NCBI GenBank assembly: GCA_017554325.1 | Contig: JAFZIP010000005.1 | Coordinates: 128,211-192,210, forward strand | DNA: 64,000 nt | Direction of reading: 5' to 3' | Source of the DNA: Bacteroidales bacterium | GTDB lineage: Bacteria; Bacteroidota; Bacteroidia; Bacteroidales; WCHB1-69 | Shown here: one piece after another, positions 4,522 to 36,265 of the stretch | Numbering within the stretch: position 1 is the stretch's first letter | Layout of the letters: every line of letters starts with the position of its first letter | Translations under genes and position numbers: made by a program | Notes under the pieces: generated by a model | Told to the model about the DNA's origin: nothing | The model's database searches: none | The model's input: the letters and a program-made list of their open reading frames with translations, nothing else

Positions 4522-5052
4522 ATGAAAAAATTACTGACCATTATCCTTGCAGTGTTGACCTTTGCTGCTTCAGCGCAGAAGGTTGAGACCCATTTCACAG
4601 AATCTAAATTCATCAAAGCATCCGGCAAGACCCTCGAAGCCGAAGGCACGTTCAAGCTCTTCTCCGCCGACAAAATGGAGATGCGCTATACCAAGCCCGC
4701 TGGCGACTATTTCATCATCGATGGCAGGACGGTGAACATGAACATGCGCGGTAAGAAGTCGGTGGTGGACACCGACAAAAATGCCGCCATCCGCTCGCAG
4801 CGCAACACCTTGATGAACTGCATCAACGGCAATTGGAAACAGGCTGCCACCGACAACAACGCCGAGAGTTCCGTGGTGGAGAAGGGCGCCAACAAGATCG
4901 TGACATTGAGTGCCAAGAAAGCGGCGCCGAGGGGCTATTCCAAGATCATCATCACCTATCGGAAGTCCGACAACCTGCCCACGGAGATGGTGCTTGAGGA
5001 GTTTAACGGCACGGTGACCACCATCAAATTGTCCAACATCATAAAAAAATAG
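4522..5052 (+). CDS. Small secreted LolA-fold carrier-like protein
   Basis: 176 aa with signal peptide MKKLLTIILAVLTFAASAQ. It has a beta-rich LolA-like pattern and lies 49 nt downstream of the exporter. Confidence 0.55.
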   Translation: MKKLLTIILAVLTFAASAQKVETHFTESKFIKASGKTLEAEGTFKLFSADKMEMRYTKPAGDYFIIDGRTVNMNMRGKKSVVDTDKNAAIRSQRNTLMNCINGNWKQAATDNNAESSVVEKGANKIVTLSAKKAAPRGYSKIIITYRKSDNLPTEMVLEEFNGTVTTIKLSNIIKK

Positions 5053-5126
5053 CATCCGGCGAGGTTGTTGATAACCCCTGTTGAAAATATTTTTTCTGCC
5101 TGATACCGAGCATATTATAAAAAATG

Positions 5127-5134
5127 TATATTTG
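5127..5134 (+). promoter_or_regulatory. Candidate Bacteroidota -7 promoter box (TATATTTG) for the rplC unit
   Basis: Matches TAnnTTTG and lies about 120 nt upstream of the rplC ATG. The leader contains small hairpins, for example TTGCTT-ATTCA-AAGCAA at 5170-5186. Confidence 0.4.
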
Positions 5135-5254
5135 CAGGCTCGAATTTTAAACCGCGAAGTGTTGATAAGTTGCTTATTCAAAGCAATTTATCACAAATGA
5201 ATGGCTTAACTTCGATGCGTAAAAGACACTAAATTTTTTATAAATCAATTTAAA

Positions 5255-5884
5255 ATGTCAGGATTAATAGGAAAAAAAATTGGTATGACTAGCATCTACG
5301 ATGCCTCCGGCAAGATCGTGCCGTGCACAGTGATAGAGGCTGGTCCTTGCGTGGTTACGCAAGTCAAGACCGTCGAGAAAGACGGCTACAGTGCAATCCA
5401 ATTGGGTTACGACGAAAAGAAAGAGAAAAACACGACGAAGCCTTTGAAGGGCCACTTCGCCAAGGCAGGCACCACGCCGAAGAAAATCTTACACGAGTTC
5501 ACCCGTTTCGAGGAAGGACACAAGAAGAATTTCGGTGAGGTTCTGGACGTAACCGTCTTCGAGGAAGGCGAGTTCGTGGACGTGAGCGGAACTTCCAAGG
5601 GTAAAGGTTTCCAGGGCGTTGTGAAACGTCACGGATTCGGCGGTGTAGGCGATGCCACACACGGTCAGCACAACCGTCTGAGAGCTCCCGGTTCAATGGG
5701 TGCTTCCTCCTACCCTTCCCGCGTGTTCAAGGGCATGCGCATGGCCGGCCAAATGGGTAACGCAAAGGTCAAGGTCATCAACATTCAGATTCTGAAGATT
5801 GTCAAGGAAAAGAATTTATTAGTAGTTAAAGGTTCTGTACCCGGAGCCAACGGATCATATTTAATTATTGAAAGATGGAGCTAA
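5255..5884 (+). CDS. rplC: 50S ribosomal protein L3
   Basis: 209 aa with conserved blocks [36 protein letters not shown] and [11 protein letters not shown]. Confidence 0.97.
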
Positions 5885-6529: not shown

Positions 6530-6820
6530 ATGAGTATCATTATAAAACCCATCATCAGCGAAAAAATGACGCAGACGGCTGAGAAATACAACCGCTACGG
6601 TTTCATGGTGACCCGCGAGGCCACCAAGCCTGAAATCAAACGCGAAATAGAGGCCGTTTATGGTGTTAAAGTAGTCCGCGTAAATACCTTGATCCAACGC
6701 GGTAAAGTCACGAACCGCAATACTAAGGCTGGCGTCATCACGGGTCAGAAGAACAACTTCAAAAAGGCCTACGTGTTCGTGGACAAGGATCAAAAAATCG
6801 ATTTTTATAGTAATATTTAA
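6530..6820 (+). CDS. rplW: 50S ribosomal protein L23
   Basis: 96 aa with the L23 pattern IIKPIISEK...AYVF, in the canonical position between L4 and L2. Confidence 0.93.
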
Positions 6821-6825
6821 AAGAG

Positions 6826-7650
6826 ATGGCACTTAAAAAGTACAAACCAGTAACGCCGGGTCAGCGCTTCAAAGTGATCAGCGCATTTGATGACATTACC
6901 ACCAACACACCCGAAAAGAGTTTGTTGAGTCCGATTCACCGGACAGGCGGAAGAAACAACAGTGGTAAAATGACGGTACGGTACCGCGGTGGCGGTCACA
7001 AAAGGATGTACCGTATGATTGATTTTAAAAGAGAAAAAGATGGCGTTCCCGCTATCGTGAAAACGATTGAATACGATCCGAACCGTTCGGCCCGTATCGC
7101 CCTCGTTTATTACGCTGACGGTGAGAAACGCTACATCGTGGCTCCTCACGGTATCAAGGTGGGCCAGGAAATCCTCAGCGGCGCAGGCGTGTCCCCCGAT
7201 TTGGGCAACTGCCTCCCTGTTGGCGAAATTCCTTTCGGTTCCATCATCCACAACATCGAGATGCGTCCGGGCCAGGGTGCCAAAATCGCCCGTAGTGCCG
7301 GTTCTTACGCACAACTCATGTCCCGCGAAGGCAAATACGCCATCATCAGAATGCCTTCTGGTGAAACCCGTATGATCCTCTGCGCCTGCAAGGCCACCAT
7401 CGGCATCGTGTCCAATGGCGACCACAGCCTCGAGGTTTCCGGTAAGGCCGGTAGATCCCGTTGGTTGGGCAGACGTCCTCGCAACCGTGGTGTGGTTATG
7501 AATCCTGTCGATCACCCGATGGGTGGTGGTGAAGGTCGTGCATCCGGTGGACACCCGCGCTCTCGCAAGGGTATTCCTGCTAAGGGTTATAAGACCAGAC
7601 ACCCGAAGAAGAATTCCAGCCAGTATATCATCGAAAGAAGAAAGAAATAA
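6826..7650 (+). CDS. rplB: 50S ribosomal protein L2
   Basis: 274 aa with [15 protein letters not shown] and [23 protein letters not shown]. Confidence 0.97.
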
Positions 7651-10520: not shown

Positions 10521-11465
10521 GTTCGTCAGTACATTCAAAGTCTGCGGTACCAGCTCCACCCGATAGTCTCCAGTGCTCAGCAATTCACCCTCCACCTCGC
10601 TCCGGAGCAAAGTGTCAGAATTTACCTTCAGTCTGTCGGTTTGATACGTGAGGATGCCTTTGATAGACTGAATATGCGTACCCTTGAAAATCCTGCCGAC
10701 ATTGGCCACCACTGTGATACCGCGTACATTGGGAACCACCACCACATCCAACTTACGGTCGTCGGGCACCGCCATGGGCACTTGGCGCATACCACCTCCA
10801 TTGTACTGACAAATGCCAGCCACCATCAGGAAAGATTTGTCCTTGAAATGAAAATCAGACCCGTTGATATCCACCTGCTGGCTTTTATAACGAAACAGGC
10901 ATCTTATAAGACTCAGTACATATACAGAAATACCTAAAAAATGGGGTTTGTTATGGGTAACGTCATGAATCACTTCCGCATCAAAGCCGAAGCCTGCAAT
11001 GTTGATGAAATAGCGATGAGCCTTTTCCACATCATGTTCCAACGTCTTCACCACACCGATATCGTGCTGCATGAAATTGCCTTTGAGAAAAATCTCCAAA
11101 TTCTGGCCGATTTCAGTGGAAAAATTATGTGTACGCGCCCAGTCGTTGCCACGACCCACAGGCATGACGGCGAGATATACCTCGTTCAAGGCCACTCCCG
11201 ACTCGCAGATGCCGTTGACCACCTCGTTGAGTGTGCCATCACCACCGAGCACCATCAGATGCCGGTGCCCATCCATACAAAGCTGGCGGGCAGTCTCAAT
11301 ACCCTTCAGCGGAGCATCTGCAAAATGTATGACATACTGGATATTCTTTTCCCGAAGCAGTTTCTCTATATCTTTCCAAATTTTCAGGCAGTTATGCTCT
11401 CTCGCATTCGGGTTCAGGATCACCTGCCATGTGAACTGAGTTACATTTAAGTTATTAGTAGCCAT
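10515..11465 (-). CDS. Diacylglycerol-kinase-family lipid kinase (YegS/BmrU-like)
   Basis: 316 aa with the DAGK catalytic motif MVLGGDGTLNEVVNG. Confidence 0.8.
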   Translation of the reverse strand: MATNNLNVTQFTWQVILNPNAREHNCLKIWKDIEKLLREKNIQYVIHFADAPLKGIETARQLCMDGHRHLMVLGGDGTLNEVVNGICESGVALNEVYLAVMPVGRGNDWARTHNFSTEIGQNLEIFLKGNFMQHDIGVVKTLEHDVEKAHRYFINIAGFGFDAEVIHDVTHNKPHFLGISVYVLSLIRCLFRYKSQQVDINGSDFHFKDKSFLMVAGICQYNGGGMRQVPMAVPDDRKLDVVVVPNVRGITVVANVGRIFKGTHIQSIKGILTYQTDRLKVNSDTLLRSEVEGELLSTGDYRVELVPQTLNVLTNL

Positions 11466-14031: not shown

Positions 14032-14104
14032 GCCGATATAGCTCAGTTGGTAGAGCAGCTGATTTGTAATCAGCCGGTCGTGGGTTCAAGTCCCTCTATC
14101 GGCT
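14032..14104 (+). tRNA. tRNA-Thr (anticodon TGT)
   Basis: Cloverleaf read by eye: acceptor GCCGATA/TATCGGC, D-arm GCTC-AGTTGGTA-GAGC, anticodon arm GCTGA-TTTGTAA-TCAGC, T-loop TTCAAGT. Confidence 0.9.
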
Positions 14105-14126
14105 CTAAGGCACAAAGAAATATGAT

Positions 14127-14208
14127 GGGAGAGTTCCAGAGCGGTCAAATGGGACAGACTGTAAATCTGCTGGCTAAGCCTTCGGAGGTTCGAATCCTTC
14201 CTCTCCCA
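14127..14208 (+). tRNA. tRNA-Tyr (anticodon GTA), long variable arm
   Basis: Acceptor GGGAGAG/CTCTCCC, anticodon loop CTGTAAA, T-arm GGAGG-TTCGAAT-CCTTC, class II variable arm. Confidence 0.9.
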
Positions 14209-14215
14209 CTCAATT

Positions 14216-14288
14216 GCGGAAGTAGCTCATTTGGCAGAGCGACAGCCTTCCAAGCTGTAGGTGGCGGGTTCGAGCCCCGTTTTCCGCT
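14216..14288 (+). tRNA. tRNA-Gly (anticodon TCC)
   Basis: Acceptor GCGGAAG/TTTCCGC, anticodon arm CAGC-CTTCCAA-GCTG, T-loop TTCGAGC. Confidence 0.88.
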
Positions 14289-14311
14289 CATCTTACAACA
14301 TTTACGCATAG

Positions 14312-14341
14312 AGCCGTCACGATGTGACGGCTTATTTTTTT
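14312..14341 (+). terminator. Intrinsic terminator after the tRNA cluster
   Basis: AGCCGTCAC (14312-14320) pairs with GTGACGGCT (14324-14332) around a 3-nt loop, followed by a T-run. Confidence 0.8.
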
Positions 14342-14346
14342 GTCGG

Positions 14347-14378
14347 AGCCGCCACGTTGGGACGGCTTTACTTTTTTT
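14347..14378 (+). terminator. Second, degenerate copy of the same terminator hairpin
   Basis: AGCCGCCAC-GTT-GGGACGGCT pairs at 7 of 9 positions and is followed by a T-run. It looks like a tandem duplicate of the 14312 hairpin. Confidence 0.5.
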
Positions 14379-14449
14379 GTACCTTTGCCGCCTTGAACTA
14401 CTAATAATAGTCTCTAATCTCTAATCTATCATCTCTAATCCAATCAAGC

Positions 14450-23233: not shown

Positions 23234-23358
23234 TGGACATCGAGGTCCCATCTCTTCGAGATGATTATTGCGTGTGAGCATCAGCATTGCCACACCGCAT
23301 CTGCCGGCTCACTCACTGCACTACACGGCGGTAGCACCACACTGCCCTCCGCTTGTAT

Positions 23359-23401
23359 GGTGTTATTTGCACTGCGTGCGTGTCGCCTCTCCGAGGCGAT
23401 G
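23359..23401. promoter_or_regulatory. Conserved non-coding block, copy A (GGTGTTATTTGCACTGCGTGCGTGTCGCCTCTCCGAGGCGATG)
   Basis: Nearly identical to 32595-32637. Contains mini-hairpins GCAC-TGC-GTGC and CGCCTC-TCC-GAGGCG. Confidence 0.5.
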
Positions 23402-23487
23402 CACACCGTCACGAAACTGCTTACGGAACATCGGGCTTGTTTTGTCGCAATTATTTCTATTTTTGCGGAAATATTTCTGCAACGATT

Positions 23488-23600
23488 ATGCCCACCCTCA
23501 CCATCCGACACAAACGACACTGGTACGAGCCGAAGCTACCGCACGCGGTCTTCCTCAACGGCTACTATGCCGGCACGCTGAAGGGTGGCCAACTGCATAT
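23488..23600 (+). pseudogene. 5' stub (first ~36 codons) of a paralog of the small membrane protein gene at 32737-33204
   Basis: MPTLTIRHKRHWYEPKLPHAVFLNGYYAGTLKGGQL matches MPTLTIRHKRHWYEPKLLHAVFLNGYYAGTLKDGRL. The promoter block TTGTTTTGTCGCAATTATTTCTATTTTTGC is also shared. Homology ends about 26 nt before the convergent TamB-like stop. Confidence 0.7.
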
Positions 23601-30771: not shown

Positions 30772-30894
30772 ATGAACATCCTTTCAAAACGCTTCGCCCG
30801 CTACGCCCCCATCGACCTCGGCATCGCCAAAAGCCACTTCGAGATTGGCGCCGAGGAAGGGAGTTTTGAGTGGGTGAAAAAGGTGATGAGGTAA
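30772..30894 (+). pseudogene. 3' fragment of a nitroreductase paralog (copy of the end of 35430-36122)
   Basis: KRFARYAPIDLGIAKSHFEIGAEEGSFEWV matches KRFAFFASYAPIDLGIAKCHFEISAGERSFEWV. The core TACGCCCCCATCGACCTCGGCATCGCCAAA is identical at the DNA level. Confidence 0.75.
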
Positions 30895-30985
30895 TCTGCT
30901 CCAAATAATCGCCGTAGATCACGCCATCGTCGCGAAGGACGTTGGCCATATTCCAAATTTTCGATATGATGGTGGATTCGGTCAT
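30890..30985 (-). pseudogene. N-terminal stub (~32 codons) of a type I R-M methyltransferase gene (hsdM)
   Basis: MTESTIISKIWNMANVLRDDGVIYGDYLEQIT fits the HsdM N-terminal pattern (K-L/I-W...LRD-D/G-GV.Y..Y). The frame then runs into the antisense of the nitroreductase fragment. Confidence 0.65.
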
Positions 30986-31000
30986 AAAAACCTATCTATT

Positions 31001-31705
31001 TTACAATCCATAATACAATTTAATGGCAACACCGACAAATATTGCTATTGAAAAGCTCAACAATGTACCTATCAATACATATTCCGACTTCGCCTTGTCG
31101 CCTTCGGCAAAACGCAGAAGTGATTTTGCAGCTATGATAAATCCAACAGCTTCATATTGTCCTAAAAGCACAAACACTAACGATAAAAGTCGTTCCACAA
31201 CACCTATCAGTTTTCCCGCATTGGGTAAATCTTCTGAATCATTATCCTCACTTCCTTTGTTCACTTTGATATTGGTAACCTTGAAAATTTCTTTGATTAT
31301 TATATTTGAGGGTTTTACACAAATAAGAACGCCCAACGACAGGGCTATAGACTTTTCTTCCACACCACTCACCCATTCAGGCAAGTTGCCTTTCCACAGA
31401 TAGCAAGCCGCCACAATCACAATCAAATGTAACAACTGATCGATAAAGAAAATAGATTTACATTTGGATGCATAACATTTCATGGCATCGACAAGCAAAT
31501 GAGTGGCGGCAACAATCAGCGCCACCCACCAAAAATTGAATGAAAATGACAAAAGCCAAGCGCACAAAAAGGTTATCAAGACATGTATATAAAGTTTCGG
31601 TGACTTAAAGCCTCTTTGTGCTTTATCCGCACACGACTTGTCATTCTGCAAATAGAAATCGCTGATGGTATGAGCTATTATTTGTAATAATAATAATCGT
31701 ATCAT
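31001..31705 (-). CDS. Polytopic membrane protein, DUF3307-like
   Basis: About 234 aa from MIRLLLLQIIAHTISDFYLQ (ATG 31705; the track start is 31759). It has multiple TM helices with His/Asp motifs (AHTISDFYLQ, ATHLLVDAMK). The ATG lies 2 nt after the upstream stop. Confidence 0.65.
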   Translation of the reverse strand: MIRLLLLQIIAHTISDFYLQNDKSCADKAQRGFKSPKLYIHVLITFLCAWLLSFSFNFWWVALIVAATHLLVDAMKCYASKCKSIFFIDQLLHLIVIVAACYLWKGNLPEWVSGVEEKSIALSLGVLICVKPSNIIIKEIFKVTNIKVNKGSEDNDSEDLPNAGKLIGVVERLLSLVFVLLGQYEAVGFIIAAKSLLRFAEGDKAKSEYVLIGTLLSFSIAIFVGVAIKLYYGL

Positions 31706-31707
31706 GG

Positions 31708-32400
31708 CTAAAAATTTATTTGTTCGAAATACTTCAACAACTGCTCGACCGCATTCCAACCAAACAATGTTGAGTGTTGATTCACAGCAGATTGCTTGAT
31801 TCCCAACTTTTCGGATATTTCGTTCTCGTTGTTTCCTAACAGACGATAGTATATGACTTCACATTGACGCCCCGTTGCTCGTTTAAACAGCACATCCAAG
31901 AATCCCAGATATGCATTTATCTGTTGCGATAATTTTGCATCTGAAGACTCAAAAAACAAGGTGTTTTTTATCACTATTTTTGATTTGTTCGAAGTTCTCT
32001 GGTGTTCTATTGCTCTTCCGGAAGCATAAATAGCCTCACCATCAAGCATATTGGTCCGTTTGTTGACAACACGCATTTCTCCTACGGCAATGGCGATTCT
32101 CACACCGTATGTCTTAAACATGCCCAAACGCTTCTTATCCGAATCCTGTCCCACACTCTCCGCATCAACCTTGAACTTCTTTATCAATGTTTTTAAAAGC
32201 AAGGCTATTCGCAATGAATCTTGCGGGTTGTCAATATAAATCTCCACGCTATCACCTTTACTCAAGCGCCCCCAAGTGCCTTTGTACTCATTTCCCAATT
32301 GCTTGACAAAGGCTTTGATTTCGCTCTGCAATTGATTTAACGCACTGGTTTTAAGTTCTGTAGAAGACACTATATCCGCTGAAATTGTCGCTTTATTCAT
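31708..32400 (-). CDS. SatD-like protein: nucleotide-cyclase-fold domain plus C-terminal sigma70-r4/LuxR-type HTH
   Basis: About 230 aa from MNKATISADIVSSTEL (ATG 32400; the track start 32442 would fall inside the operator repeats). Cyclase-like blocks are ISADIVSST, KGDSVEIYI, VRIAIAVGEM and LDGEAIYASGRAIE. The HTH is CEVIYYRLLGNNENEISEKLGIKQSAVNQH. Confidence 0.6.
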   Translation of the reverse strand: MNKATISADIVSSTELKTSALNQLQSEIKAFVKQLGNEYKGTWGRLSKGDSVEIYIDNPQDSLRIALLLKTLIKKFKVDAESVGQDSDKKRLGMFKTYGVRIAIAVGEMRVVNKRTNMLDGEAIYASGRAIEHQRTSNKSKIVIKNTLFFESSDAKLSQQINAYLGFLDVLFKRATGRQCEVIYYRLLGNNENEISEKLGIKQSAVNQHSTLFGWNAVEQLLKYFEQINF

Positions 32401-32416
32401 AGATTTTATTTTTTTG

Positions 32417-32424
32417 CAAAAATA
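32417..32424 (-). promoter_or_regulatory. Candidate -7 promoter box (TATTTTTG on the minus strand) for the SatD-like operon
   Basis: Matches TAnnTTTG and lies 16 nt upstream of ATG 32400. Confidence 0.4.
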
Positions 32425-32430
32425 CAAAAA

Positions 32431-32512
32431 TTTATAAGCCAAACAACTTATAAATGGTATTTATAAGCCAAATAACTTATAAATAGTGTTTATAAGCCAA
32501 ACAGCTTATAAA
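32431..32512. repeat. Three tandem 24-bp palindromes TTTATAAG-N8-CTTATAAA with a 29-bp period (candidate operator or iterons)
   Basis: Copies lie at 32431-32454, 32460-32483 and 32489-32512. The half-sites are perfect reverse complements. Only the spacers differ (CCAAACAA, CCAAATAA, CCAAACAG). Confidence 0.85.
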
Positions 32513-32594
32513 TACTACGGTGGCTTCGACAGGCGTAGCGTGGTGTGACACGAGCGCGATAGCACGTCATGCAGTGGCAAGCAATGCGCAGTCT

Positions 32595-32637
32595 GGTGCT
32601 ATTTGCACTGCGTGCGTGCCGCCTCTCCAAGGCGATG
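32595..32637. promoter_or_regulatory. Conserved non-coding block, copy B
   Basis: GGTGCTATTTGCACTGCGTGCGTGCCGCCTCTCCAAGGCGATG is nearly identical to 23359-23401. Confidence 0.5.
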
Positions 32638-32736
32638 TGCCTGAAAGCAAGTTTTTTTTTGCAATGTGAAAGGCAATAACACAAACTTGTTTTGTCGCAA
32701 TTATTTCTATTTTTGCAACAAATTTGAATCACGATT

Positions 32737-33204
32737 ATGCCCACCCTCACTATCCGCCACAAACGACACTGGTATGAGCCGAAGCTGCTGCATGCAGTCT
32801 TCCTGAACGGCTACTATGCCGGTACGCTGAAGGATGGCCGACTGCAGGGCGAGGTGCCGCCGGGCAGCTACGCACTTCGGGTGCAGTTCGGCGGAATCAT
32901 CCCGATTGGCAAGAAAGGCAAGCGCATCGACCTGTCGGTGTCATCGACAGAGCAGGTGGAGGTTCCTCTAACTGGCGAGATGGTCTGCGAGTTTCACGAC
33001 CGCGAACGGCTGTGGAACATCCTTTTCGACATCGACCTCATACTTTGGATCGTGTCTTGGTTCGTGCAGATGCCGCCACTCTACAAAATCCTCTCCAATG
33101 CCTTCTTCGCCATTTGGCTGGTTCGGCTGGTGATTATCCGGAAGCAGTATTACAAGATTGTGACGACCTATACTTCTCCCGCAAAGAATATAGAGAATCC
33201 GTAA
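32737..33204 (+). CDS. Small membrane protein of unknown function (soluble N-domain plus 2 C-terminal TM helices)
   Basis: 155 aa with the TM region LILWIVSWFVQMPPLYKILSNAFFAIWLVRLVII. A TATTTTTG box lies at 32708-32715. This is the full-length member of a family with stubs at 23488 and 36205. Confidence 0.6.
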   Translation: MPTLTIRHKRHWYEPKLLHAVFLNGYYAGTLKDGRLQGEVPPGSYALRVQFGGIIPIGKKGKRIDLSVSSTEQVEVPLTGEMVCEFHDRERLWNILFDIDLILWIVSWFVQMPPLYKILSNAFFAIWLVRLVIIRKQYYKIVTTYTSPAKNIENP

Positions 33205-35429: not shown

Positions 35430-36122
35430 ATGACCTTACAAGAAGCCATTGTTGCCCGCCACAGTGTGCGGCAATACATCGAACAGCCCATCGAGGCGGA
35501 GAAAATCCAGCAGTTGCAAGAGTTTATCGACCAATGCAACCTCGACGGGAACCTGCACATCCAGCTGGTGACCGATGAACCGAATGCCTTTTCCAGCATT
35601 ATCGCCCATTACAGCAAGTTCCGCGGCGTGCGCAACTACATCGCCATGGTCTGCAAGAAGGGCGACGACGTGAACCTTGGCTACTACGGCGAGAAGGTGG
35701 TGCTGTTGGCTCAGACGCTCGGGTTGAACACCTGCTGGGTGGGTGCCTCCTACCGCAAACAGCCCGACCGATACAAAGTGGAATGCGACGAGACGTTAGT
35801 CTGTGTGGTGTCGCTCGGCTACGGCGTCACGCAAGGGGTGCCGCACCCGCTGAAACGAACCGTCGCCGACGTGACGGAAGACCGCCGCACGACCGACCAC
35901 GGCAAGGCCTTCCCCGAGTGGTTCGTGCGTGGCGTGGATGCCGCCCTGATGGCCCCCACCGCCGTCAACCAGCAGAAGTTCACCTTCATCCTCCACGACG
36001 GAAACAAGGTGGAGGCGCAAAAACGCTTCGCCTTCTTCGCCAGCTACGCCCCCATCGACCTCGGCATCGCCAAATGCCACTTCGAAATCAGCGCTGGGGA
36101 AAGGAGTTTTGAGTGGGTGTAG
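35430..36122 (+). CDS. Nitroreductase-family protein
   Basis: 230 aa with the N-terminal RHSVRQY motif and an overall nitroreductase pattern. Confidence 0.8.
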   Translation: MTLQEAIVARHSVRQYIEQPIEAEKIQQLQEFIDQCNLDGNLHIQLVTDEPNAFSSIIAHYSKFRGVRNYIAMVCKKGDDVNLGYYGEKVVLLAQTLGLNTCWVGASYRKQPDRYKVECDETLVCVVSLGYGVTQGVPHPLKRTVADVTEDRRTTDHGKAFPEWFVRGVDAALMAPTAVNQQKFTFILHDGNKVEAQKRFAFFASYAPIDLGIAKCHFEISAGERSFEWV

Positions 36123-36204: not shown

Positions 36205-36265
36205 ATGTCTTTTTCGTCATTTGGCTGGTGCGGCTGATATTGATTCGAAAAAGTATTACAAATAA
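36205..36265 (+). pseudogene. 3' stub of another paralog of the 32737-33204 gene family (frameshifted)
   Basis: MSFFVIWLVRLILIRK matches AFFAIWLVRLVIIRK. The DNA aligns to 33105-33155 with a 1-nt deletion before GTATTACAA. Confidence 0.55.

Follow-up and report, generated by a model that had tools for sequence, protein, structure and literature searches.

The window (the whole stretch of DNA that was analyzed, 64 kb) contains a two-gene module on the minus strand, consisting of a gene for a putative regulator followed by a gene for a DUF3307 membrane protein. Upstream of the regulator gene lies an array of three palindromes. The features of the locus are listed below, with distances given relative to the ATG of the regulator gene at 32400.

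30878 to 30985, minus strand: N-terminal remnant of hsdM, 36 aa, detected by tblastn; 89% identical to the intact HsdM of locus L001.
31001 to 31705, minus strand: gene for a DUF3307 membrane protein, 234 aa from the ATG at 31705 (Pfam DUF3307, 1.2e-25).
31708 to 32400 (stop included), minus strand: regulator gene, 230 aa, with a predicted class III nucleotidyl-cyclase-like N-domain (aa 1 to ~165) and a predicted C-terminal four-helix helix-turn-helix (HTH) domain.
32417 to 32424, minus strand: predicted Bacteroidota-type -7 box TATTTTTG, a motif match to TAnnTTTG.
32431 to 32454, no strand assigned: promoter-proximal palindrome TTTATAAG-CCAAACAA-CTTATAAA, -54 to -31.
32460 to 32483, no strand assigned: middle palindrome TTTATAAG-CCAAATAA-CTTATAAA, -83 to -60.
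32489 to 32512, no strand assigned: distal palindrome TTTATAAG-CCAAACAG-CTTATAAA, -112 to -89.
32513 to 32534, no strand assigned: short flank beyond the array, in which 16 nt (GCCTGTCGAAGCCACC, minus strand), as read by eye, are common to the hairpin that follows hsdS in locus L113.

Reading by eye and pattern search both identified three exact copies of TTTATAAG-N8-CTTATAAA (32431-32454, 32460-32483 and 32489-32512). The palindromes are 24 bp long with 8-bp spacers and are separated by 5-nt linkers, giving a period of 29 bp. Using TRF, the array was detected at 32430-32514 (period 29, 2.9 copies, 91% matches). All three copies have the same half-sites, and the spacers CCAAACAA, CCAAATAA and CCAAACAG and the linkers TGGTA and TAGTG differ at few positions, so that the units are both palindromes and near-identical direct repeats. 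When up to two mismatches were allowed, the sole further match in the 64-kb window was a two-mismatch site at 6816. The chance expectation at this stringency was 0.01 matches, and none of 100 dinucleotide shuffles reached four. The original prediction of three perfectly phased palindromes with invariant half-sites was thus borne out.

At gathering thresholds, Rfam detected only three tRNAs, located elsewhere in the window, and an E-value scan of 32300-32800 returned only a chance miRNA match. A CRISPR array was ruled out by the copy number and the lack of unique spacers.

Reading from the array toward the gene (minus strand), the order is TTTTTG, the predicted -7 box TATTTTTG (32424-32417), 16 nt, and the ATG (32400-32398). 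TAnnTTTG is the -7 consensus of Bacteroides and other Bacteroidota promoters. The proximal copy had been described as ending 7 nt from this box; the box at 32417-32424 was found as described, but the gap consists of 6 intervening nt (32425-32430). We also observed that the proximal palindrome at 32431-32454 covers the region expected for a -33 element.

An alternative start codon of the regulator gene, a TTG at 32442, falls inside a palindrome. The 230-aa ORF starting with the ATG can be aligned from end to end with homologs whose starts coincide with it, and the conserved core ATISADIVSS begins at an equivalent position in the window protein and 15 relatives, which make up the set of 16 aligned proteins. 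Therefore, the earlier preference for the ATG at 32400 over the start at 32442 was right.

The AlphaFold (AF2) model of the regulator (pLDDT 89, pTM 0.89) comprises an alpha/beta N-domain and four C-terminal helices. When the model was compared with the PDB using Foldseek, the top 50 matches were all class III adenylyl or guanylyl cyclases (best E 2e-5). Judging from the predicted structure, we conclude that the N-domain has the class III cyclase-homology fold. All 16 aligned proteins share D9, G49/D50, R101 and R129. By eye, we take D9, D50 and an arginine to correspond to the metal-binding aspartates and the arginine of the cyclase motifs. The transition-state Asn of cyclases is, also by eye, seemingly replaced by Tyr125, which makes catalysis by the regulator uncertain.

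In the C-terminal part, the window protein matched the Pfam GerE model below threshold (17.1 bits; cutoff, 23.5). Among the 16 aligned proteins, 14 match GerE (best 1.1e-5) and 14 match Sigma70_r4_2. The predicted recognition helix spans aa 203-213 (QSAVNQHSTLF), residue 205 (Ala in the window protein) being the third in the helix. In a PDB profile search, this helix was matched weakly (E 0.6) with the KTVKTH helix in a solved LuxR-type response-regulator DNA-binding domain. NCBIfam contained no family for the regulator or the DUF3307 protein, and PADLOC, Pycsar-type cyclase plus transmembrane effector systems included, gave no meaningful match for either protein (best CARF3--CARF, E 0.033).

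A DUF3307 homolog was found downstream of the regulator gene in 87 of 90 sequences searched, and we conclude that the DUF3307 gene is an obligate downstream partner of the regulator gene. The regulator had originally been labeled SatD-like. The Pfam SatD model (PF16264) misses the window protein, for which no match was obtained at E values up to 1, but one of the 16 aligned proteins matches the model at 2e-4. What is left of the label is therefore a remote relationship, as suggested by this sequence match. In Streptococcus pyogenes, satD is an accessory gene and yet essential (PMC11323703). By analogy, and bearing in mind the remoteness of the SatD relationship, this is compatible with a repressor that keeps a harmful partner in check. 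In our literature search, no paper on a SatD operator or on the function of DUF3307 was found.

Homolog loci at 94%, 85% and 57% identity all harbor phased copies of the same palindrome upstream. A scan with one genome per species yielded 79 loci from Bacteroidales, Flavobacteriales and Cytophagales, with protein identities of 42 to 90%, and in most loci TRF revealed a 29-bp period upstream of the regulator gene. For calling individual sites, TAT at positions 3-5, G at 8, C at 17 and ATA at 20-22 of the 24-mer were required with at most one mismatch, together with a partner site at a distance of 29 or 58 ± 1 bp. At least two phased palindromes were present upstream of the regulator gene in 81 of 83 related loci (42 to 94% protein identity). 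As a control, 1798 other 450-bp windows from these loci and 1580 shuffles were examined in the same way, and only 3 windows and 1 shuffle contained two or more phased sites.

Altogether, 287 phased sites were called across the 81 loci. The copy number per locus ranges from 2 to 8, and three copies in the promoter-proximal run are the mode (46/81). The start of the proximal site lies between -52 and -56 relative to the ATG in 35 loci, with a mode of -54, which is also its position in the window. In 37 loci, a TAnnTTTG box is located 4 to 6 bp past the proximal palindrome, and in 7 loci such a box overlaps the right arm of the palindrome. The arrays of Paludibacteraceae and Flavobacterium loci are situated 100 to 350 bp upstream of the promoter and do not match a simple occlusion of the promoter.

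Two other explanations were rejected on the basis of these data. Chance or a generic AT-rich repeat is ruled out by the shuffles and the control windows. Dispersed palindromes of the REP/BIME type are ruled out by the lack of a second exact site in the 64-kb window and by the rarity of arrays in the control windows, which represent ~800 kb of related loci.

The inner half-site differs between lineages, the variants being ATAAG; AT(A/C/T/G)GG with CCGAT; ATTAG with CTAAT or CTTAT; and ATCAG with CTGAT. Residue 205 in the predicted recognition helix is Val where half-site base 7 is G, and mostly Ala, occasionally Ser, Thr, Gly or Asn, where this base is A. When only the promoter-proximal run was counted, loci with Val205 had G at base 7 in 28 cases and another base in 2, while loci without Val205 had G in 2 cases and another base in 49 (Fisher's exact test, 4e-17, uncorrected for phylogeny). 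On a neighbor-joining tree of the N-domain only, parsimony required 10 changes for V/nonV, 12 for G/nonG and only 13 for the combined character, showing that most changes of residue 205 and of base 7 coincide. By inspection, Val and non-Val states are both present in each of three major clades.

Furthermore, a blind check was conducted with 16 proteins that had been found solely via an adjoining array of the AAG type, and Val205 was absent from all 16. In the metagenome-assembled genome JAILLP01, one paralog (L019) has Val205 and GG-type sites, and the other (L024) has Ala205 and AAG-type sites. A further helix variant, QHAVNQLSN, pairs with ATCAG sites (L032, L036 and L039). The covariation could partly reflect co-inheritance of the gene and its upstream region. 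Judged from NarL, residue 205 is presumably not among the canonical base-contacting positions. It is a candidate specificity-determining residue for the module, and an A205V exchange is predicted to switch the site preference.

In plasmid sequences, tblastn detected homologs with 22 to 25% identity, each followed by an annotated DUF3307 gene. Upstream of the Vibrio lentus p1 homolog (25% identity), 2.7 copies of TTAGCC-N6-GGCTAA are arranged with a 28-bp period and end ~30 bp before the start codon. Two Salinivibrio replicons carry two degenerate palindrome copies. Upstream of a Segatella copri plasmid homolog (22% identity), other repeats were found, which do not show the phased-palindrome architecture. 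A different palindrome in the same architecture, as seen in Vibrio, is what co-evolution of the regulator with its operator would predict.

We propose, with a probability of about 0.78, that the array is an operator by which the adjoining cyclase-HTH protein, probably bound as cooperative dimers, controls and probably represses its own two-gene operon. The original prediction of an autoregulatory operator array read by the HTH of the adjoining protein is endorsed at the level of comparative sequence analysis: the array travels with the gene, its position relative to the -7 box is conserved, the half-site covaries with residue 205, and the predicted fold is of a dimeric class. This operator reading has to be weighed against other uses of the repeats, which are suggested by the genomic surroundings of the array and by arrays that lack the gene.

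In the closest relatives, the module is part of a type I restriction-modification (R-M) operon with the order hsdR-hsdS-array-regulator-DUF3307-hsdM (L001, L012-L014 and L018-L022), and an independent lineage, L048, has the same R-M arrangement. Judging from its similarity to the intact HsdM, the hsdM remnant at 30878-30985 marks a decayed type I R-M operon that formerly enclosed the module in the window. The short flank at 32513-32534 probably represents the border of the hsdS side that was deleted. In addition, a 250-bp segment is duplicated (23355-23597 versus 32591-32846, 91%), and a 3' fragment of a nitroreductase gene at 30792-30876 is a duplicate of 36035-36119. The DNA around the locus is rearranged. 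The hsd genes have also decayed in L004-L007, L011, L015-L017 and L043, where the module and the array are intact.

Outside the R-M clade, the neighbors of the sampled loci varied, and the recurring ones were housekeeping genes. Upstream (n = 35), these were the gene for the DUF2764 protein of the V-ATPase operon (5/35) and a chorismate-binding (pabB-like) gene (5/35); downstream (n = 32), they were the gene for the V-ATPase A subunit (3/32) and tilS (5/32). The module, nested as it is in unrelated operons, is thus an autonomous two-gene unit. No Rep family was present among the listed neighbor families.

Metagenomes were scanned for two adjacent exact sites of the AAG type, and 37 stretches were obtained. 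The regulator gene was located 31 to 146 bp downstream of the array in 19 of them and was absent within ~1.8 kb in the other 18. One group of these orphan arrays belongs to R-M loci of the same clade, in which the array follows the hsdS stop codon and other DNA precedes hsdM (L115, L125, L096, L099 and L123). In this clade, the slot between hsdS and hsdM can be empty or occupied by other cargo with the array still in place (L115, L125 and L123). In L048, an hsdS-end-like stretch followed by an array is additionally present ~4 kb downstream of the module. The arrays of the second group have unrelated surroundings, some of them phage-like, and frequently lie between the 3' ends of convergent genes.

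The variable slot between hsdS and hsdM, the additional copy in L048 and the rearranged state of the window locus could mean that the repeats are iterons or recombination sites of a mobile element, and that the array marks the boundary of a cassette that enters and leaves operons. Some viral arrays adjoining tRNA-like 3' ends would also suit such a role. However, no Rep, transposase or integrase accompanies the module, its recurring neighbors in the loci sampled outside the R-M clade are housekeeping genes, and the position of the array relative to the promoter is conserved. Moreover, plasmid iterons are direct repeats of 17 to 22 bp, unlike the palindromic 29-bp units described here. We consider it highly unlikely that the array serves primarily in replication or recombination. 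The original prediction had offered iteron-like sites of a mobile-element remnant as an alternative; as a primary role this was not supported, and the decayed type I R-M operon is a partial echo of it.

In IMG/VR, 19 stretches with two AAG-type sites were found. Freeing the linker to 0 to 30 nt recovered these 19 and no others, all of them with a period of exactly 29 bp. Pairs of the TATCGG type were detected in 30 stretches of viral contigs, with a period of 28 in 18 and of 29 in 9 of them. Arrays of the TAG type (Aequorivita-like) were not detected in viral contigs. In one jumbo-phage lineage, the site pair lies beside a bidirectional terminator, and a BLAST comparison of this neighborhood with cultured phages gave no match. 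Genes for regulator homologs were found neither in IMG/VR nor in INPHARED (50,697 phage records), and no ORF resembling the C-terminal domain was present beside viral or orphan arrays. The original prediction had asked whether the motif is unique to its locus or a generic AT-rich repeat. Generic it is not, according to the shuffles and control windows, but neither is it exclusive to the promoter of the module, as shown by the orphan arrays in R-M loci and phage contigs.

The phage-contig arrays often adjoin an intrinsic terminator, and those of R-M loci come immediately after the hsdS stop codon. In addition, each unit can form a stem of 8 to 11 bp, and the 96-nt array region of the window has a stable predicted fold (-31.6 kcal/mol, z = -6.0). 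The units could accordingly act as RNA hairpins or DNA cruciforms, serving as 3'-end stabilizers, processing sites or termination aids for upstream transcripts such as those of hsdS or phage genes. Such a fold score is, however, a trivial consequence of palindromy. Moreover, the outer TAT/ATA bases keep their sequence in the TRF consensus units of all lineages, and position 6 is complementary in only 68% of the distinct sites, with uncompensated changes such as TTTATTAG...CTTATAAA and TTTATAGG...CCGATAAA. Hairpins would not be expected to show a strict 29-bp register, to keep a constant spacing from the -7 box or to covary with a residue of a protein, and in most loci the array is located upstream of the promoter. 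For these reasons, we give hardly any credence to a function of the units as secondary structures.

The presence of arrays without a nearby gene in 18 of 37 metagenomic stretches and in all viral cases means that the sites are not only autoregulatory or that a second protein uses them. A different protein, either a general host factor or an HTH protein encoded by a phage or another element, might bind the palindromes, with the regulator gene merely lying beside a site cluster. The arrays of identical architecture in phage contigs and other intergenic regions, as well as the lack of SatD-like genes in IMG/VR and INPHARED, are in favor of another binder. Against it, the gene association is near-universal (81/83 versus 3/1798), and the half-site covaries with the recognition helix encoded by the adjoining gene, the blind prediction included. 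Furthermore, paralogs in one genome have distinct sites, and upstream of the Vibrio homolog the architecture is kept with another palindrome. Altogether, another protein as the principal reader of the array seems unlikely.

For the orphan arrays, several roles are conceivable: additional targets of host regulators, decoys, relics, or binding sites of a different protein. Speculatively, and with little expectation that it holds, phage two-site arrays might titrate a low-abundance autorepressor so that the DUF3307 membrane protein would be derepressed, as in an infection sensor or abortive infection; or phages might recruit the host regulator to control or insulate their own transcription units. 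Under both variants, DNA occupancy would be coupled to signaling via a nucleotide that the cyclase-like domain makes or senses. The regulator-less phage contigs with the same two-site arrays hint at an interplay between host and phage, and they are the likeliest place for something new.

Returning to the operator reading, the regulator would dimerize via its cyclase-like domain. Solved class III cyclase-fold members work as dimers, and a fold of this dimer-forming class fits palindromic sites. One dimer would bind per 24-bp palindrome, with half-site centers 16 bp apart. Three dimers would assemble cooperatively into a single nucleoprotein complex, in which contacts between neighboring dimers would account for the fixed 29-bp register. 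With half-site centers 16 bp apart and a period of 29 bp (~2.76 helical turns), neither the half-sites nor neighboring dimers share one face of the DNA. To accommodate this geometry, either the DNA would have to bend at the AT-rich spacers or the proteins would have to form a helical array.

Since the proximal palindrome lies 6 nt from the -7 box and over the promoter spacer and the -33 region, its occupancy should exclude RNA polymerase and thus repress the genes for both the regulator and the DUF3307 protein. Repression rather than activation is suggested by the promoter overlap, and it would also fit the essentiality of S. pyogenes satD. The cyclase-like domain, in which both putative metal-binding aspartates are kept (D9 and D50), presumably binds or turns over a nucleotide that would modulate DNA binding.

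Under this operator reading, the array is a concrete, testable cis-element for an uncharacterized two-gene module. This module occurs widely in Bacteroidota and extends to Vibrionaceae, and its relationship to streptococcal SatD is remote. It is nested in unrelated operons, namely those for type I R-M and V-ATPase, as well as between pabB-like and tilS genes, and it outlives surrounding R-M genes.

Several known systems resemble parts of this arrangement. The control region of Ss-LrpB, with three phased palindromic boxes, and OR1-3 of lambda are regularly spaced multi-box autoregulatory operators. As in these systems, the array consists of palindromes in a fixed register in the control region of the adjoining gene itself, with the proximal one overlapping the core promoter and cooperativity being implied. 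In contrast to them, the regulator is predicted to combine a cyclase-like domain with an HTH of the LuxR or sigma-r4 type, the period is 29 bp (28 bp in Vibrio), the palindromes are 24 bp long with an 8-bp AT-rich spacer, and 2 to 8 copies are present.

Concerning the protein, class III cyclases with a C-terminal LuxR-type HTH, such as Rv0386 of Mycobacterium tuberculosis, are large proteins with ATPase and TPR modules. Like them, the regulator would pair a cyclase-homology domain with a LuxR-type HTH in one polypeptide, but it is a minimal fusion of 230 aa in which the Asn is apparently replaced by Tyr125. The streptococcal sat locus, with SatD (PF16264) and SatC/DUF3307, has the same gene pair of a regulator-like protein beside a DUF3307 protein, but unlike the SatD family, the window protein lacks a match to the Pfam model.

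With plasmid iterons, the array shares short tandem repeats of fixed period beside the gene for a presumed cognate binding protein; it differs from them by the lack of a replication initiator, by its palindromic units, by its chromosomal housekeeping context and by its promoter-tied position. Finally, the operators of R-M controller (C) proteins are likewise tandem palindromes upstream of an autoregulated HTH gene in an R-M operon. The C proteins, however, are small HTH proteins of the Xre type that belong to type II systems, while the module described here is found mostly outside R-M loci and persists after hsd decay. We assign the array to a well-known class, the tandem autoregulatory operator, here predicted for an uncharacterized cyclase-HTH/DUF3307 module.

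We analyzed the DNA flanking the window module, the two-gene unit formed by the cyclase-like/HTH regulator gene and the DUF3307 membrane-protein gene, and detected a remnant of a type I restriction-modification (R-M) gene. It is 89% identical to HsdM of L001, a close relative with the intact operon hsdR-hsdS-array-regulator-DUF3307-hsdM.

30878-30985, minus strand, HsdM N-terminus remnant of 36 amino acids

We conclude that the window module was formerly located inside a type I R-M operon and that hsdR, hsdS and hsdM have since been lost, while the module and its palindrome array remained intact.

The surrounding DNA carries several duplications. A direct duplication of approximately 250 bp (23355-23597 versus 32591-32846; 91% identity) spans a GC-rich leader and a Bacteroidota promoter, together with the initial ~37 codons of the 32737-33204 gene, and the copy near 23.4 kb represents a truncated paralog fragment (MPTLTIRHKRHWYEPKL...). 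Furthermore, a 3' fragment of a TM1586-type nitroreductase gene is duplicated beside the module (30792-30876 versus 36035-36119; 91%), and a piece of the 32737 gene is repeated past the intact nitroreductase gene (33098-33143 versus 36205-36250; 78%). The latter two duplications are signs of rearrangement near the cassette. Elsewhere in the window, a terminator-like 35-bp unit (GAGCCGCCACGATGGGACGGCTTTACTTTTTTTG...) is present in 1.9 copies at 14311-14380, directly past a tRNA-Thr/Tyr/Gly cluster (14032-14289).

In five related type I R-M loci, an array with the AAG-type half-site follows immediately 3' of the hsdS stop codon, and the regulator/DUF3307 module is absent.

L115, 5058-5168, module-less AAG-type array after hsdS
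L125, 4443-4495, module-less AAG-type array after hsdS
L096, 645-726, module-less AAG-type array after hsdS
L099, 3298-3350, module-less AAG-type array after hsdS
L123, 4941-4993, module-less AAG-type array after hsdS

The slot ahead of hsdM is filled by other DNA, which in L123 comprises two unannotated ORFs, and the cargo near these arrays includes RelA/SpoT-like, AAA_13 and AAA_15/AAA_21 genes. Just 5' of the hsdM promoter we observed three ATAT(A/G)(A/G)TGCAT motifs with a 28-bp period (L115, 5538-5605; L125, ~4590-4660), which form a second, operator-like triple repeat. L115 also contains a GC-rich insert of ~240 bp (5240-5480) between the inverted repeats ATTTTAATAACCCCACA and TGTGGGGTTATTAAAAT; this MITE-like insert was found in L096 too and is missing from L125.

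Outside the R-M clade (L029-L049 and L062-L089), the module, read in the same direction as its neighbors, is embedded in a V-ATPase operon (DUF2764 ... ATP-synt_ab) or has a chorismate-binding/pabB-like gene on one side and tilS on the other.

Some loci harbor two neighboring arrays of unlike half-site type, with a distal AAG pair and a proximal GG run (L012, L013 and L020) or a distal CGG run and a proximal run (L036, L039, L044 and L049). In these loci, the pairing of regulator Val205 with G at half-site base 7, and of other residues with A, fits the promoter-proximal array only. The distal array may have been left behind by cassette replacement or may serve as a site for a paralog. In L048, a second, two-copy array (10662-10714) lies ~4 kb downstream of the module. 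Since a short sequence resembling the hsdS 3' end (...GGAGTTGGTGTA) precedes this array, it is probably a relic junction.

Pairs of AAG-type palindromes with a period of exactly 29 bp were also detected in viral contigs from IMG/VR (L127-L145; e.g., L134, 4391-4441). Their carriers include a jumbo-phage lineage (170-330 kb), and the pairs often adjoin a bidirectional terminator. TATCGG-N8-CCGATA pairs occur in 30 IMG/VR stretches (L146-L174 and L131), with a period of 28 in 18 and of 29 in 9 of them; the L131 contig carries a GG-type and an AAG-type pair together (5079-5127 and 7178-7228). Some viral pairs (L137, L147 and L155) adjoin tRNA-like 3' ends. No SatD-like gene was found in IMG/VR or INPHARED.

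Beyond Bacteroidota, an array was found on Vibrio lentus plasmid p1, 5' of a gene for a 25% identical regulator homolog, with a DUF3307 gene downstream of that gene.

L175, 2371-2445, TTAGCC-N6-GGCTAA, 2.7 copies, 28-bp period

This array shares the architecture of the Bacteroidota arrays but differs from them in its half-site.
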